From positions 320,001 through 384,000 of the forward strand of contig OZ001293.3 in the NCBI GenBank assembly GCA_963921275.4: a DNA stretch of 64,000 bases, written 5' to 3'. This DNA comes from an uncultured Hormoscilla sp. (GTDB lineage: Bacteria; Cyanobacteriota; Cyanobacteriia; Cyanobacteriales; Desertifilaceae). This document shows positions 12,750 to 53,242 of the stretch, piece after piece. The first letter of the stretch is position 1; the number at the start of each line of letters is the position of its first letter. Below the pieces are notes generated by a model. That model was not told where the DNA came from. It worked only from the letters and a program-made list of their open reading frames with translations, and made no database searches. The position numbers and the translations under genes were made by a program.

Positions 12750-13028
12750 GGGTGTGGTCAAAACCCGTTGATCGTTCATGGGTCTTCCCAGTCGCCGGAT
12801 CCCCCCAAACCCCCCTGGGTTGGGTGTGGTCAAAAGTAGTTGATAGCCAGGTGCAGGCTCCCGGACCCCCCCGCTGCCCGGATACATGTATATAGCCCGC
12901 GCAGGCGGGCTTTGTTCGTGTAGCCGGGCCCTTTAGGGTGAGGGCTACTCCGTCTCCTACCAACGGGTTTTGACCACACCCCCCTGGGTTTGGGGGGGAT
13001 CCCGTTGCAACTACTTTTGACCACACCC
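12750..13028. mobile_element. MITE, 279 bp, with a 9-bp target duplication
   Basis: TIR GGGTGTGGTCAAAA/TTTTGACCACACCC; GATCTTGCA at 12741-12749 and 13029-13037. Confidence 0.85.
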
Positions 13029-41088: not shown

Positions 41089-43236
<2,148 letters not shown>

Positions 43237-46220: not shown

Positions 46221-46729
46221 CGAATACCATGTCAGTTGTTAGTTGTCAGTTGTCAGGATCACGGTACTCGATGTGCTCTGCGCGCTCGATGTCCCCGGGG
46301 AGCGCGCAGAGCACATCGTATTCGCACTACGCATCGCACATCGCCTCGTCACTCGGCCTGGTAGGTGCTCACTGATAACTGCTCACAGGTCACTGGTCAG
46401 CAGTGCAGTCTGCTCATATCCGGTTTGGCCTCCGGAGTTGGCGGCGATGTCTCCTGTGTGCCGAGTCCCCTGGGACAAGAGCAAGGAATCGAAGATCCCC
46501 GATCGATTTTGAGTTGCGTGGCCGTTTTGCCCTTAACTTTGACCCCAGAACTGGCAGCATTAGATCGAGTCTGCTTGCAGACTTCCTGTCCAGAGGCGGG
46601 AACACCACCAAAAGGCGACTTTGGTGCTATTTCCGGGTTTTGGCACTCCAGATGCCACTGGACATGCTCCCATAATTCATCCTTCTTATTGACCTTGATT
46701 TTAATCATTACCCTGCTTCCCTTGACACC

Positions 46730-47969
46730 AAGGTTGTCAGGGACGATCGTCTATGTGAAGAAGGTAAATGGCCGCGAGCTGCGAACGGGGGATTTTGTGA
46801 GAAAAGGGGACCTGCTAGCCCAGGTAGACCCTCGCAAACTGGCTTCGGATGTGACGGTGGCCCAGGCCCAGCGGCAGGATGCCCAGCAGCGGTTGAGTAC
46901 GGCCCTGGCTTCTTTAAGGCAGTCGGAGTCGGCGGTGAGTCAGGCCCAAGCTGAAAAAGCAAGAGCGGAAGCTTCTTTAGCGTCTGCCCAAGCGGACTTG
47001 AAAAGAGCTGAAGCTAATCGCGATTTCGCCCAGACCGATGTTAACCGCTACCAGAAACTTTGGGAAGACGGCGTCGTATCGAAGAGCGAGCGGGACACCA
47101 GAGAAACCCAGTTTGCGGAAGCTCAAGCGGCGGTTGAAGCTGCACGAGCGCAGGTGAAAGCGGCAGCTGCTGGAATAAGGGCAGCGTCGAGCGCTGTCTC
47201 TTCAGTTCAGGCGGCAGTCTTATCCCAACAGGCCCAGGTAGAATCAGCGCAGTCGGGAATTAAATCGGCGATCGCCTCCCTGAACAAAACCCAAGTCATC
47301 CTGGAAGACACGGAGATAGTCGCCCCTTTTGACGGCATTATCGCCCATCTCAACATCAAAGAAGGGGACTATTGGATGCCCCAGGTCATCAACGTCGGAG
47401 GGGACTATCAGCAGATGGTAGAGTCGGTGCCGATAATTGCGATCGACCCGAGTGAGTTTGAGGTAAATGTAGAATTGCCAGCTTTCGATGGTGCTAGGGT
47501 CAGAACGGGTCAACGCGCTTTCATTATTGCCAATGAACGGCTGCACAACCCTGATGCTATGACTGGCTCAGATCTGATTAATTTGGCTAGTGCTGAAGGG
47601 ATTGTGTTCTCTGTCAGTCCTTCGGTGACTCCAGGAGAACGGGCGATCGAGATAAAAATCAGGGTAAATAAAGGCGCCCAAAACCTGAAGAATGGGGCTC
47701 GCGTTTCTACTTGGATCGCCGTAGCAGAAAAGCCGAACGCTACAACGGCTCCTTTCAGTGCTTTTCTCTGGAGGGACCAAGTACCACATGTATTCGTAGT
47801 TAATCAACAAGAGGGAATAGTAGAACAGCGCCGGATAAAAACGGGCATTCGTGGGAACTCCCAACGGGAAATAATCGATGGCGTTCAACCAGGCGAACTG
47901 GTTGTGATTGAGGGAAAAAATCGTCTCGTGGATGGAACACCAGTGGAGGTGATTGAAATAGTTGAATAG
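46730..47969 (+). pseudogene. RND efflux periplasmic adaptor (HlyD/MFP); normal N-terminus not found
   Basis: SGTIVYV...GDFVRKGDLLA, coiled coil and IVAPFDGII; upstream in-frame sequence is repeat-rich with no signal anchor. Confidence 0.7.
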
Positions 47970-49433
47970 GCGAATTGAGCAATTGAGAATTTAGAATCTG
48001 GAGAGTGCGAAGTTCTCCTGAAAAACGACCTAGTATAAAGAGGGCAAGGGTATAATGGGGGTTTCGGACTCCGCGCCCCAATCACCAAGGCTAGAATGCG
48101 GGTTGCAGCCGTACTCCTAAAATTGTCCGGACTGTTGCAATTGGCTATGAAGAATTAGCAATGAACAATTAGCAATGAACAATGAACGAAGAACATGATG
48201 TTACAGATGTAAGCAAAGCATCCCCGATCGCCAAGTTCTTTTTACTGAATACGGTTTTTGCCATTCTCATGTGCGTCCTACTGGTAATTGGAAAGCTGAT
48301 CGGGGCGGCGACAATAGTGAAAGAAGGCAACCCTGATATCGATCAAACCTTCGCTAGCGTGACGACCATTTGGCCAGGTGCAGATCCAGAAACGATCGAA
48401 AACCAGGTCACGGACAAGCTAGAGAAAGAACTCAAATCCCTCAAGGGACTCAAAAAACTCAGTAGTGCTTCCTTCGATGGCAGTTCGCTCATTATTATCG
48501 AATTCCGCGCCGAAGCACCTGTGGCAGAGTCGATCGCCCTGGTGAGAGCAGAAGTAGATGAAAGCGCAGCAGAGTTAGATTTGTCCTCGGACGCCTCTCA
48601 GCCCAAAGTCGAGCAAATCTCCGCCCAAGACACCCCCGTACTCAGCCTAAGCCTGTTTGGCAATATCGACCAGGCAGTCCTAAGTCGCGCTACAGAAGAC
48701 ATCGAAGAACTGTTAGAAAAAGTCCCCAACGTCAGAAAGGTTGACCTGAGTGGCGATCGCAAAAAAGTGATCCACGTGCAGCTGCTGCCCGATCGCCTCC
48801 TGACTCTCAATATTTCTCCCACTCAGGTGAGAAATGCGATCGCCAGTAGCAACCGAGACCTACCCTAAGACGAAGTAGAGAGAGACCAAATAGGCACCCA
48901 AGTGCATTATTACGGTCGGTTTAGAACCGAAGCAGACCTGCGCAGTTTACCCGTCACCCGCCTAGGGAAGGGCAGAGAGAAGAATAGTGTATCTGTCAGA
49001 AATAGCAAAAGAGCGTCGCGACCTAGAACGAGAACAGACTCGCGCTTTTATTAGTGGTAAAAGAGAAGAATTTGAACCAGTAACTAGCGTAGATGTAGTC
49101 AAGATACCGAGTTCGGACACAATTAAAATGATTAATAATTGCCTAGGGGCGATCAAGCAGGCCAGACAAAATCCCTCAACCCGGCCCTACAGGATAAAAT
49201 ACAAAATCGTCAGCACAGAAGCAGATATTATTAACCAGCAACTGCAGTCTCCATTCAAAAACGCTTGGCAAAGAGTCCTGGCAGTTTTTATCGTATAACT
49301 GTTAGCCCTCAGCTGGCGCGAAGCCATCATCGCTGGGTTGTCTACCCTCCTCTTTATGGGGGCGATCGCCGTCCCTTGGATATTCAGTAACACACTGAAC
49401 AAGATAGTACAAGAGAGTCTGATCCTCGCCCTC

Positions 49434-51314
49434 AGCTGGAGTCGAGCCCATAATCACCTCCCAACCCTCCCTTTCGGAAACATGCATGCAACTCTCACCG
49501 CACACAGCTACCGAGTAGATAGCCCTTGTCCTAAGTAGAATTACTCAGGATTACCCCCCTCATTCCTTTCCTCATGCAATTTCACCCCTTATGGTTAGTC
49601 TCAGACTACATATATGCCCAACCCCGGAAAATTCGCGGGGGATAACAGAACCAACCCATATCATCCGCTCCTTACCAACATTTACCTAACTTATCAGGTT
49701 CTCCAAGTCTTACCCAGTCAAATCTTTAGCCCAACATTCATTACCTAGGATTTCACCTGGACTATAACATTAAAGTTACCTTCACCCCAAGACTCTATCC
49801 ATCACCGACCCACGTCAGCATATCCATAGGAGTTACCCCAGGCGTTCGCCTCTTGGGCCATCTCTCATCTCATAGCCCGCACCTTACATCTAACCCGTCC
49901 AAACAAAAACAGCCCATAAAAAATTACCTCGTTCCCCGATCTCATCTCACGATATCCTTAGACCCTCACCTTACCCCCGCAACTCTTCAAGCACAATAGT
50001 CAAAATCCACAACCAACACTAACCACCTTCCCCTTTTGAGCCAGCACATAAAACCTTACTTCGCTGGTTCTACATTACGAAGCTTACACGAGTTTGTTTC
50101 CTCTGATCTTAGACATCTTTCCTAGCGGCGTCACTGACTTAGGCTATCAGCTACCCTACATTTAAGTCCTCGCTTAGCACCGCGACGATTTGGCTCCGCA
50201 GCACCTCACGCGGTTACCCCATACCTAAGAAAAAGTCGGGGTCGAGCTGTCCCTCGCGGGACAACCCTCCCTTTCGGAACCGTGCATGCGACTTTCACCG
50301 CACACGGCTACTGGGTACTAGGCCCCTTTCACGGGTAGGATTACTAGGGATTACTCCCATTATCCCTTACTACTTGCACGTCCGCCCCTTTCCTGGTTGG
50401 TGAGTGGAGCTGCCGGATAACCTTTAGTATCACCATTTAACACTCCGTTTTACCAGTTAAACATTCCTCAATCCTCAACTCGCTTTCGCTAACGCTGTAA
50501 ATGGGCTTATGACATTTTAGAGCTACTTGTACCAATAGTTTACTAGTATCACCGACCCGCGTCTGCGTATCCATAGGCATTACCGGCGTCTTCCGCATGC
50601 TCTTGTCCTGAAGGACTTTGGCGTCTTCCGCACACTCTTGTCCTGAAGGACTCGGTGTGCTCCAGACACCAAGGCATGCTCCAGACACCGCCTAGGCATT
50701 AGCTTCTCGGGCCATCTCTCCCCTCATGGGCATGCGCTATGCGCTGCGCGCACGCTACGCGGACGCACATCTGACTTGTCCAAATGAGGACAGCACCACG
50801 AGGGTTACTTCGTTCCTCTCGCTGAGGTTACTTCGTTCCCTGATATCATTTCACGATGCCTTTAGGCCCCTACTTTTCCCCGGCAGTTATTTGGGTACAA
50901 TGTTAGCCAATTCCCTAATTAACACTAACTGCATTAACTTTTGTTCCAGCGCATTAAGCCTTATTTCGCTGGTTGAGTTTAACGAGGTTTACATAGGTTC
51001 GCTTGTTCTAGCCATGGACATCTTTCCTAGCAGAGTCACCGGCTTGGGCTGCCAGTTATCCTACATTTGAGTCCTCGCTTGGCACCACGATGATGTTACT
51101 TCGCAGCACCTCACGCGGTTATCCCTGTACCTGGGGAGGGGGAATTAAACCCCCATGATTACCAGAGTTCCTAGTTTCCTAGGCCAGCGTTCCGTATATG
51201 ACTACGTTAGGCTGGAACTCATCGCACGGGAATTTAACCCCATGAGTACCAGAGTTCCTAGTTTCCTAGGCTAGCGTTCCGTATTTGACCACGTTAGGCT
51301 AGAACTCATCGCAC
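49434..51314 (-). ncRNA. ORF-less group II intron copy D (parts 51314-51228 and 50233-49434; 3' part degenerate)
   Basis: GTGCGATGAG start at 51314; degenerate domain V near 49475-49511; removal restores the host frame. Confidence 0.88.
50234..51227 (-). ncRNA. ORF-less group II intron copy E nested in D (twintron), 994 nt
   Basis: GTGCGATGAG at 51227; domain V AGCCGTGTGCGGTGAAAGTCGCATGCACGGTT; ends CTCGACCCCGACT. Confidence 0.92.
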
Positions 51315-53242
51315 GGACTCCTTGTAGATGTATTCATTCTGATGATGGAAGGGATGCACGAGGGGATTTTCGTTAAAGGTCTGTCTTTCGAGCAAGCTGC
51401 CTTGAAAACTTTTAAAACCTACGCAGTGCCAGCATTGTCCGGTCAGCTAACCACGATCCTGGCAATGGCACCATTGATGGCAATTAGCGGCACCCTGGGC
51501 AAATTTATCCGCTTGATTCCCATTAGTGCGATTACTTGCTTGCTGCTCAGCTACGCGATCGCCCTCTTAGTAGATATCCCTCTCTCCCGCTACCTCCTTG
51601 CTAATGTCAAAGGCGGCGCAAAAAAGACTTTCATTGACAAACTTACAGAAGTCGCTTCCGAGAAGTTTCTGCATTGGAGTTTGCGATCGACTGTCCGCAA
51701 CAAAACTACTGCCCGCTTTTGGACTATGGGGGCGATCGCCCTATTTGTTGGCACCACTATTCTGGTGGGAAACGTACCAGGGACTCTGTTTCCCGACTCC
51801 GACCAACTCAAATTGAGCATCAACATCGAAATGCCCCCCACTACTACTCTCGACAGTTCCCAGATCCTAGCAGATGAAGTGGGGGAAATTCTGCGGAGCA
51901 AGGATTACTTGGAGACGGTAGTCAAATTCGTCGGTCAGCGGAGTAAACTAGTAGGAGAAAGCGGCATCAAACCCAACACTGGCAATTACCTAGTGGGCTT
52001 TTCGGTAAGGTTTGTACCTAAAGAAGACCGCGAAAAATTCTCATTTGAATATATCGACCCGCTGCGGTCCGAGTTAACCCAGGCATTACGCAACTATCCA
52101 GGGGCATCTCTCGTGGTAAATTTAGATGCTGTAGGAGAAGGGGGAGACCCGATCTCCATTGAGCTCACGGGCAGCGACATGGACGAGTTGCGCCGCATTT
52201 CTGGGAACGTGCAGCTAGCTTTGCGACAGATTCCGGGAACAGCAGATGTCCGCGACGACTTAGGTCCGGAACGACCGGACGTGAAACTCCTTCCCCGCCG
52301 GGAAGCGATGAATTTCTATGGCATTACTCCAGAAGATTTCGCCCTCCAGGGGCGCTACCTGATGACTGATAACGATATCGGCGATTTCCCGATCGGAGGC
52401 AGACAGGAAGACTTGGAAATTCACCTCAGTACGAGATGGCAGTCCCGTGGTGGAGCAGTTGGCGGACCCACCCGCATAGACGAACTGGTAACGACTCGTT
52501 TCTTCTCCCCAGACGGGGCAATTGCCGCTACCCAAGTAATCGATATCGTGTCCGATCAGGCACCTTTGTCAATTACCCACCAGGATGCTCAGCGCACGGT
52601 CACCGTTTTGGCGAAGACCAAAGATCGCACAGTCGGGGAGATATTAGCAGATTTGGAACCGCAGCTACAGGAAATGCAGCGCCGCTGGCCGGGAGGCTAT
52701 GACTACAAATTCGGCGGAGAAGCGGAAAGCCAAAGCGAGACTTTTGGTTCGGCGGGACGGATGGCATATGTTGCGCTGTTCCTAGTCTTTGCCGTCCTAG
52801 TGATTCAATTTGGTTCTTTCACCCAGCCCTTTATCATTATGCTGGCTATCCCCTTCGCTTTGATCGGCACTTTTGGCGGCTTCTTTCTGTTCTGGATCCC
52901 GATATCTTTCCCGGCGGTAATTGGGATTATAGCCTTAACAGGAATTGTGGTTAATGATTCAATTGTCATGGTAGAAACGATGAATGCTTATCGCCAGCGA
53001 GGCATGAACCTGCGTGAAGCTGCTGCACGTGGGGCTGCCGATCGCCTCCGTCCTGTCCTGACTACCAGTATTACCACGATCGCGGGTGTGCTTCCCTTGG
53101 CCCTGAACGATCCGGTCTGGTTTCCCCTCTGCATGGCGATCGTCTTTGGGTTGATGGCCTCAACTGCGATCTCTCTTTTAGTCGTGCCCTGTTTGTATCT
53201 CCAATTGACTCCCAGTCATAGCTAATTGTCGATCGCTAATCG

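Follow-up and report, generated by a model that had tools for sequence, protein, structure and literature searches.

A group II intron nested in a sister intron of a Hormoscilla chromosome, and the domain I hairpin on which its lineage appears to be specialised

On the minus strand of a 64,000-nucleotide stretch of an uncultured Hormoscilla sp. chromosome (contig OZ001293.3, here C1, 6.88 Mb; the stretch, C1:320001-384000, is called the window below), one group II intron, E, lies inside another, D, and the two form a real and precisely bounded twintron. All but one of the copies of E's recognition type in this genome sit at the same conserved hairpin of other introns, and E comes from a lineage specialised on such sister introns. 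E is very probably a recent retrohoming insertion by a lineage that has no open reading frame (ORF) and whose exon-binding sites (EBSs) match the domain I hairpin of its own family, and it landed in a D copy that is now compromised.

Read on the minus strand, D opens with GTGCG at 51314, its 5' segment (nt 1-87, 51314-51228) ends in ATTCCC (51233-51228), and E then opens with a GTGCG of its own at 51227. E is 994 nt long and closes with ...GACT at 50234, after which the 3' segment of D (nt 88-887) runs from 50233 to 49434. The terminal T is assigned to E because uninterrupted family members read ATTCCC/TCTCCCC at this point (a slash marks the insertion point); the sequence after other E copies is TCTCCCC or TCCGCCC. 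When E is removed, the remaining 887 nt of D align end to end, unbroken over nt 87/88, with two uninterrupted paralogs, C1:1037154-1036263 (89.7% identity) and C1:1731460-1730570 (89.6%), and the 5' segment differs from the first of these by one 1-nt deletion and no substitutions. The inner intron is therefore wholly contained in the outer one, in the same orientation, and its removal restores the outer sequence.

E has the hallmarks of a group II intron, i.e., a 5' GUGYG start and a 3' domain V/VI with an AGC triad and a bulged-A helix. Its domains V-VI (50312-50235) match Rfam RF00029 with 47.9 bits over model positions 1-77 (cut-off 40), and they take a canonical fold with a minimum free energy (MFE) of -37.6 kcal/mol and a z of -3.77. 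The longest ORFs inside E are 83 and 114 aa, so it is ORF-less, without an intron-encoded reverse transcriptase/maturase. Three other full copies are 99.3-99.5% identical to it. The target hairpin is also present within E itself (GGGGG-UUUAAUU-CCCCC, 51156-51140), recognised by sequence and fold. The original prediction had described E at these coordinates, splitting D after its 87th nucleotide, had matched E's hexamer GGGAAT to the ATTCCC inside D, and had noted a further ATTCCC in the 5' region of E. The boundaries and the empty-site paralogs bear out the first of these claims, the further motif is present at 51145-51140, and the hexamer occupies the EBS1 position and pairs fully, as set out below.

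Two nhmmer rounds on the chromosome with the ends of E gave 473 5' ends and 442 3' ends, which amounts to ~470 introns. Stack-pairing of these ends yielded 371 introns (leaving 88 5' ends and 36 3' ends unpaired), of which 369 begin with GTGCG; most are 750-1000 nt long and ORF-less, and the top-level paired introns take up 338,504 bases, or 4.9% of the chromosome. We aligned 345 of the 371 (216 unique), excluding the 26 whose length minus inner introns fell outside 700-1100 nt, and placed the recognition sites by covariation over this alignment.

EBS1 of E is GGGAAT (E nt 313-318, 50915-50910), which lies in a hypervariable loop flanked by conserved, covarying stem arms (e.g., TTAG..CTAA, CTGG..CCAG and TCAGTG..CACTGA). 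The loop hexamer makes at least five of six possible pairs with the 6 nt of upstream exon in 303/345 introns, compared with ~80/345 for shuffled partners. At the D site, all six pairs between GGGAAT and intron-binding site 1 (IBS1; ATTCCC, the last 6 nt before E, 51233-51228) are Watson-Crick. EBS2 is a second hypervariable block right after the conserved CCTCGTTA, and it is complementary, subfamily by subfamily, to flank positions -13 to -9; in a 140-copy family, for example, TAAGG faces CCTTA. E-type copies, including E's siblings, mostly have AACCC as EBS2, and E has AACTC (nt 249-253, 50979-50975), which makes five of five pairs, one of them G.U, with the IBS2 GGGTT in the domain I hairpin of D (51240-51236). 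A candidate EBS3 column (E nt 353, at 50875, an A in E) is complementary to exon position +1 in 80.6% of the 345 introns, and the corresponding IBS3 of the E target is the +1 T at 50233. In 9 of the 10 intron-hosted E-type copies with a readable 3' junction, the first exon base is T; the exception has a small junction deletion, and one further junction could not be read. The target of E is thus GGGTT-NN-ATTCCC/T, recognised through three IIB-type pairings. D fits its own site (51327-51315) in the same manner: its EBS2 TGTAG (50074-50070) pairs with CTACA (51327-51323), and its EBS1 GGATTT (50008-50003; GGACTT in the paralogs) makes 6/6 pairs, including two G.U, with GAGTCC (51320-51315).

The original prediction held that this EBS1 variant makes sister introns its targets, and it proposed searching the genome for GGGAAT copies, with a scatter outside introns as the outcome that would speak against the idea. 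We searched the whole genome for the GGGAAT loop, allowing at most 4 substitutions in 22 nt, and found 12 copies. Eleven of them stand directly behind another intron's GGGTTA(A/G)(A/G)TTCCC hairpin, 85-93 nt from the host's GTGCGA, i.e., at one homologous intron site, as expected of a lineage that targets introns; the claim stands, and the scatter was not seen. The twelfth copy (C1:5978581) is at a look-alike non-intron site, AGGGCAAGATTCCT followed by G at +1, with an IBS1 match of 6/6 (one G.U) and an IBS2 match of 3/5. Two of the eleven nests have been disturbed further. At C1:2265897, the host 5' segment is cut by an antisense intron, and at C1:5893755 to 5891673 (minus strand), an E-type copy is cut after about nt 100 by a ~2-kb insertion. 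The terminal inverted repeats of this insertion are 15 nt long and differ at one position, and 10 bp of the target (CCCCAGGTAC) are duplicated, so it is probably an insertion sequence element. The same domain I site also holds two internally deleted E-like copies (C1:1387525 and C1:5243199) and two copies of another subtype (C1:5258757 and C1:1809083), both broken by other insertions.

The site itself is plentiful. Base composition predicts ~1.5 occurrences of the motif GGGTTNRATTCCC in the genome; there are 372, and 351 of these sites have GTGCGA within 100 nt upstream. The +1 base is T at some 145 of the unoccupied sites; in the most abundant family (869/871 nt) it is C, and the site there has no insertions. 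For 11 twintrons (10 of the GGGAAT-loop copies plus C1:1387525), we compared hosts with inner introns. The host 5' segments are 64-100% identical (median 70%) and lie in 11 different flanks, and the inner copies are 98-100% identical over their first 84 nt. Diverged hosts with near-identical inner introns argue for repeated independent homing. Mohr et al. used the same argument, reading identical inner introns in diverged outer ones as recent independent insertions (PMC2882425).

We therefore propose the following origin, the mechanism and timing of which are conditional. The three EBSs of the E lineage (EBS2 AACYC, EBS1 GGGAAT and EBS3 A) would have become complementary to GGGTT-NN-ATTCCC/T, the conserved hairpin near the 5' end of domain I. 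An E ribonucleoprotein, probably borrowing its reverse transcriptase in trans from ORF-carrying relatives, would then reverse-splice into the hairpin DNA wherever a sister intron has T at +1, giving same-orientation twintrons. In the window, D would first have inserted antisense in a gene for an RND efflux pump, E would have landed in D, and D is now catalytically compromised. Sources of reverse transcriptase in trans do exist, as the group II maturase domain has 75 matches in the genome; one ORF-carrying relative lies at C1:1143966-1147413.

Several points weigh against this proposal. Just 13 of the 372 GGGTTNRATTCCC sites have an intron 5' end right after them, so homing is infrequent or recent. 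E's AACTC is a private C>T change within EBS2. The reverse transcriptase partner is a presumed one. Among the short-read contig pieces listed (32/672), no E-D junction is bridged by a rule of 31 nt on both sides, and the E 5' junction is uncrossed. Finally, the host 5' segments are identical within two pairs of twintrons (C1:1428599/1387439 and C1:4584451/4581401), so some twintrons may have spread as composites or by duplication.

This last point leads to the strongest alternative, namely that the site recurs because a few composite twintrons have spread, with outer and inner intron moving or duplicating together, and not because E has homed repeatedly. The identical pairs speak for it, particularly as C1:4584451 and C1:4581401 are just 3 kb apart, and so does a class of five twintrons in which an 871-nt intron sits in a copy of itself, two of them with common outer flanks. 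However, the 11 hosts comprise at least 8 sequence types with the median identity given above, every flank is different, and D has close uninterrupted paralogs with no other D-plus-E composite among them. We consider composite spread an unlikely account of the pattern as a whole, and repeated homing by the E lineage remains the preferred one.

A second alternative is that the pair is a functional twintron, in which stepwise splicing restores the host transcript, as in Trichodesmium. E does have a canonical domain V/VI, it has the same orientation as D, and its removal restores the domain I sequence of D. The outer intron and the gene tell against this, and we consider a functional twintron highly improbable. 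The 3' end of D scores 26 bits in RF00029, under the cut-off of 40, and its domains V-VI (49512-49435) fold no better than shuffled sequence (MFE -21.7 kcal/mol, z 0.01). Relative to the paralogs, its domain V carries AGCC>AGCT, GAAA>GAGA, GTCGC>GTTGC and CACGG>CATGT; pairing is lost at the catalytic-triad helix, where a C.U mismatch replaces a C-G pair, and domain VI no longer folds. D therefore lacks an intact catalytic domain V/VI and is a degenerate member of the family by descent, 89.7% identical to intact paralogs.

The sole interrupted gene encodes an RND efflux pump on the plus strand, so that the twintron is antisense to it. The ACR_tran profile matches this gene in two stretches, with its positions 1-213 at 48182-48865 and its positions 396-1019 at 51315-53222 (E-value 1.6e-88 for the latter). 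The N-terminal part (48182-49433) is broken by a TGG>TAA stop at 48866-48868 and a 1-nt insertion near 48964, and the C-terminal part (51315-53225) continues on the other side of the twintron. With its outer domain V/VI decayed and the gene on the opposite strand broken, the twintron is unlikely to restore a gene by sequential splicing; it is probably a genomic trace of past mobility that no longer functions as a two-step splicing unit. A scan of 47900-51500 for promoters and terminators gave 0 minus-strand promoter-like sites and one weak terminator-like site (48454-48431), counts that are below shuffle expectation and carry no weight. Upstream of the pump gene, a gene for an HlyD-family membrane-fusion protein (46365-47969, plus strand) gives the arrangement a pump-operon-like appearance.

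The remaining alternative is that the nesting is an artefact, from a repeat mis-join in the assembly or ectopic recombination between intron copies; with ~470 copies, contigs that break at repeat edges and chimeric E-like copies (common 5' 402 nt, different 3' halves) it has some basis, but it is scarcely credible given junctions exactly at the first and last intron nucleotides beside a fully complementary IBS1, IBS2 and +1, the same junction type 13 times in different hosts, and a contig across the E 3' junction. That contig, one of the pieces listed from four short-read runs, spans 50155-50262 with 29 nt inside E. Among the same pieces, the D 3'/flank junction (49433/49434) is bridged in X1 and X3, the D 5' junction is covered with just 30 nt inside D, and contigs agree with the body of D and its junction to the exon without a single difference.

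The RND gene is uninterrupted at the D insertion point in all four congeners (in G004 as an intact frame of 1055 codons, in G002 with one internal stop), and D appears to be a recent, lineage-specific insertion. The intron family is present and abundant in all four, with at most 81% identity to E. The twintron junction pattern was found in 0/60 relatives, many of whose assemblies are fragmented and may be missing repeats. When the pattern was loosened to a pair of intron starts separated by 80-98 nt, it picked up 13 true twintrons in the source genome and only non-intron matches in the four congeners.

The original prediction also suggested that the lineage could nest repeatedly. Multi-level nests do exist, but they involve other introns; E inside E was not found in the genome, although E carries a copy of the target. 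At C1:5193306-5196019, for example, there are three levels, with an outer intron holding an E-type copy at the domain I site and an opposite-orientation intron between nt 84 and 85 of that copy, and a junction there has a 14-nt duplicated stretch that includes the last 4 nt of an intron.

The part of this locus that would surprise a specialist begins at the 3' edge of E. From 50232 to 48293 on the minus strand, comparison with paralogs and congeners reveals a strand-coordinated hypermutated tract of ~1.9 kb: on the intron sense strand, ~135 changes are A>G or C>T, and transitions in the opposite direction number ~10. The first change is at +2 after E, and from there the tract takes in D nt 88-887 and a further 1.14 kb of the RND gene, where the last change of this type is at 48293; the TGG>TAA stop of the gene is of the tract's mutation type. 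E itself, D nt 1-87 and the flank on the other side of D are spared. The five private differences between E and its three siblings include four C>T.

Changes specific to D were defined, on the intron sense strand, as sites where both D paralogs agree and D differs. The 86 such sites comprise 41 A>G, 35 C>T, 6 A>T and four others, with 0 G>A and 0 T>C, and because the family majority sides with the paralogs at 66 of them, D is the derived sequence. None of the 41 A or C sites in D nt 1-87 is changed; from nt 88 onwards, 9-36% of A and C sites are changed per 100 nt. Against its nearest neighbour, D has a strand split of 77 to 3 (binomial p = 1.4e-19), and the next p among the other 38 intron copies with enough transitions is 0.0125. 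Subfamily consensus sequences from 85% clustering were too heterogeneous for polarising changes, so the nearest-neighbour comparison was used instead.

In the flanks, changes private to the source genome were polarised with the four congeners and counted on the minus strand. The segment next to the D 3' end (48182-49433) has 58 A>G or C>T, 7 G>A or T>C and 11 transversions. The corresponding counts are 1, 6 and 12 in the segment beyond it (46700-48181), and 6, 12 and 8 on the other side of D (51315-52814). The changes depend on their neighbours: C>T is rare after G (7/81) and common after C (29/77), and A>G in D is rare after G (5/65) and common before G (19/67), with Fisher p values of 0.0003 to 0.02. 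The share of A sites turned into G is 17% in the structured D RNA region and ~6% in the flank, and that of C sites turned into T is 25% in D and 20% in the flank. The tract is unlikely to be a consensus error, as contigs built from reads show 0 differences from the mutated sequence over 49300-49544 and 49814-50131, although these runs may share the assembly's sample.

One idea is that the sharp tract edge at the E 3' junction is a molecular footprint of E activity, which we offer tentatively and think doubtful. In one version, the target strand 3' of the insertion site would be single-stranded during E retrohoming and deaminated before copying, with E spared because it would be RNA at that time. 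In another, free 3'-exon RNA released at the E 3' splice site would be deaminated (A-to-I and C-to-U), reverse-transcribed and recombined into the chromosome. A candidate alternative is an unrelated deamination followed by recombination between chromosome copies, ending at the E heterology. Only 1 of ~11 twintrons has a tract of this kind, which means that E insertion does not regularly leave one behind. A narrow genome search for dedicated DNA deaminases gave 0 matches for YwqJ, as well as 0 for OTT_1508 and DddA-like, where the controls were also silent and absence is thus not shown; MafB19-deam had 3 genome matches but also occurred in 12/14 control genomes and so was uninformative. The cumulative GC skew of the chromosome is weak and irregular. 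We found nothing in the open-access library searched on hypermutation beside a group II intron. In either version of the footprint idea, this would be the first natural case in which deaminase-type hypermutation accompanies a group II intron event in a bacterium. A link between the tract and E would also raise the new question of whether bacteria, like eukaryotes, deaminate retroelement intermediates.

Other arrangements of the intron family were seen along the way. The self-in-self class mentioned above is a second type of twintron, in which the 871-nt intron (EBS1 AGACTC) lies in a copy of itself at an offset of 767-768, after AAGTCT; its loci are C1:1325884-1327625, 5180205-5181946, 6411996-6410256, 6031315-6029574 and 4743593-4741852. 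Five E-like copies (C1:1428685, 2265897, 4581308, 6622111 and 4515295) have their first ~402 nt in common (92-99%, including EBS1 and EBS2), and they have differing 3' halves and lengths of 754-895 nt, which suggests modular recombination or template switching between subfamilies. At C1:5243199 (minus strand), the host of the E-like copy is without its first 5 nt (GTGCG) and is fused to the ...GACT end of another intron, in what looks like a tandem or recombinant arrangement. The window itself holds an opposite-strand pair, an 835-nt intron (42242-41408, minus strand; EBS1 TGCACT) in an intron-like 1541-nt span (41089-42629, plus strand), which is followed by an unpaired intron 3' end at 43234 (plus strand). 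It also has a single Rfam CRISPR-DR28 match at 12893-12916 (minus strand; 36.6 bits, cut-off 35).

A few other microbes are already known to have intron-in-intron lineages, though not at this site, and the open-access library searched yielded nothing on the domain I hairpin as an intron target. A hairpin that each family member must keep would give the lineage hundreds of gene-free landing sites (the 372 motif sites). Landing in sister introns would have a low host cost, and the site pool would grow with the family, a strategy that has also been proposed for Thermosynechococcus. For experimental work, the family offers a natural, well-replicated EBS/IBS set, including the +1 rule that would decide which subfamilies get hit, and a concrete target for a mobility assay.

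The nearest known case is Thermosynechococcus elongatus, in which ORF-less TeI3 'F3' introns lie in TeI4 'F1' introns, making 5 twintrons among 28 introns (Mohr, Ghanem and Lambowitz 2010, PMC2882425). As in the E lineage, an ORF-less cyanobacterial group II lineage inserts there at a conserved site of related mobile introns. The inner introns described in that paper are identical, the outer ones diverged, and reverse transcriptase is supplied in trans, whereas for E such a supply is presumed. The site also differs: in T. elongatus it falls within domain IV, where it separates the intron ORF's first two ATGs (PMC2882425), and in our case it is a hairpin ~87 nt into domain I. E's hosts are mostly ORF-less, there are ~470 copies in the genome, and the mobility of E is putative.

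In the archaeon Methanosarcina acetivorans, group II introns reportedly home into the ORFs of related introns and form nested arrays (Dai and Zimmerly 2003, RNA 9:14). The E lineage instead targets ribozyme domain I, and no repeated self-nesting was found for it.

The Tery_4732 twintron of Trichodesmium erythraeum is closer in position, with an inner intron in domain I of a host that starts with GUGCGAUUC (Pfreundt and Hess 2015, PMC4649490). As described there, it is a single locus on the sense strand of a conserved gene, both introns have ORFs, and sequential splicing takes place in vivo. The E/D pair, in contrast, represents a multi-copy lineage of ORF-less introns, is antisense to a broken gene and has a degenerate outer ribozyme.

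Plant mitochondria provide the remaining comparison: a 'hypermobile' group II intron invades itself there, and 'zombie' twintrons occur (Zumkeller et al. 2020, PMC7049729). As in our genome, a family invades its own copies and some of the twintrons have lost function, according to the account in PMC7049729. That system is organellar and relies on host-encoded factors in the same account, whereas the host of E is a bacterium with many reverse transcriptase genes. Moreover, the E lineage hits sister subfamilies, and self-invasion in the source genome is the work of a different, 871-nt family.

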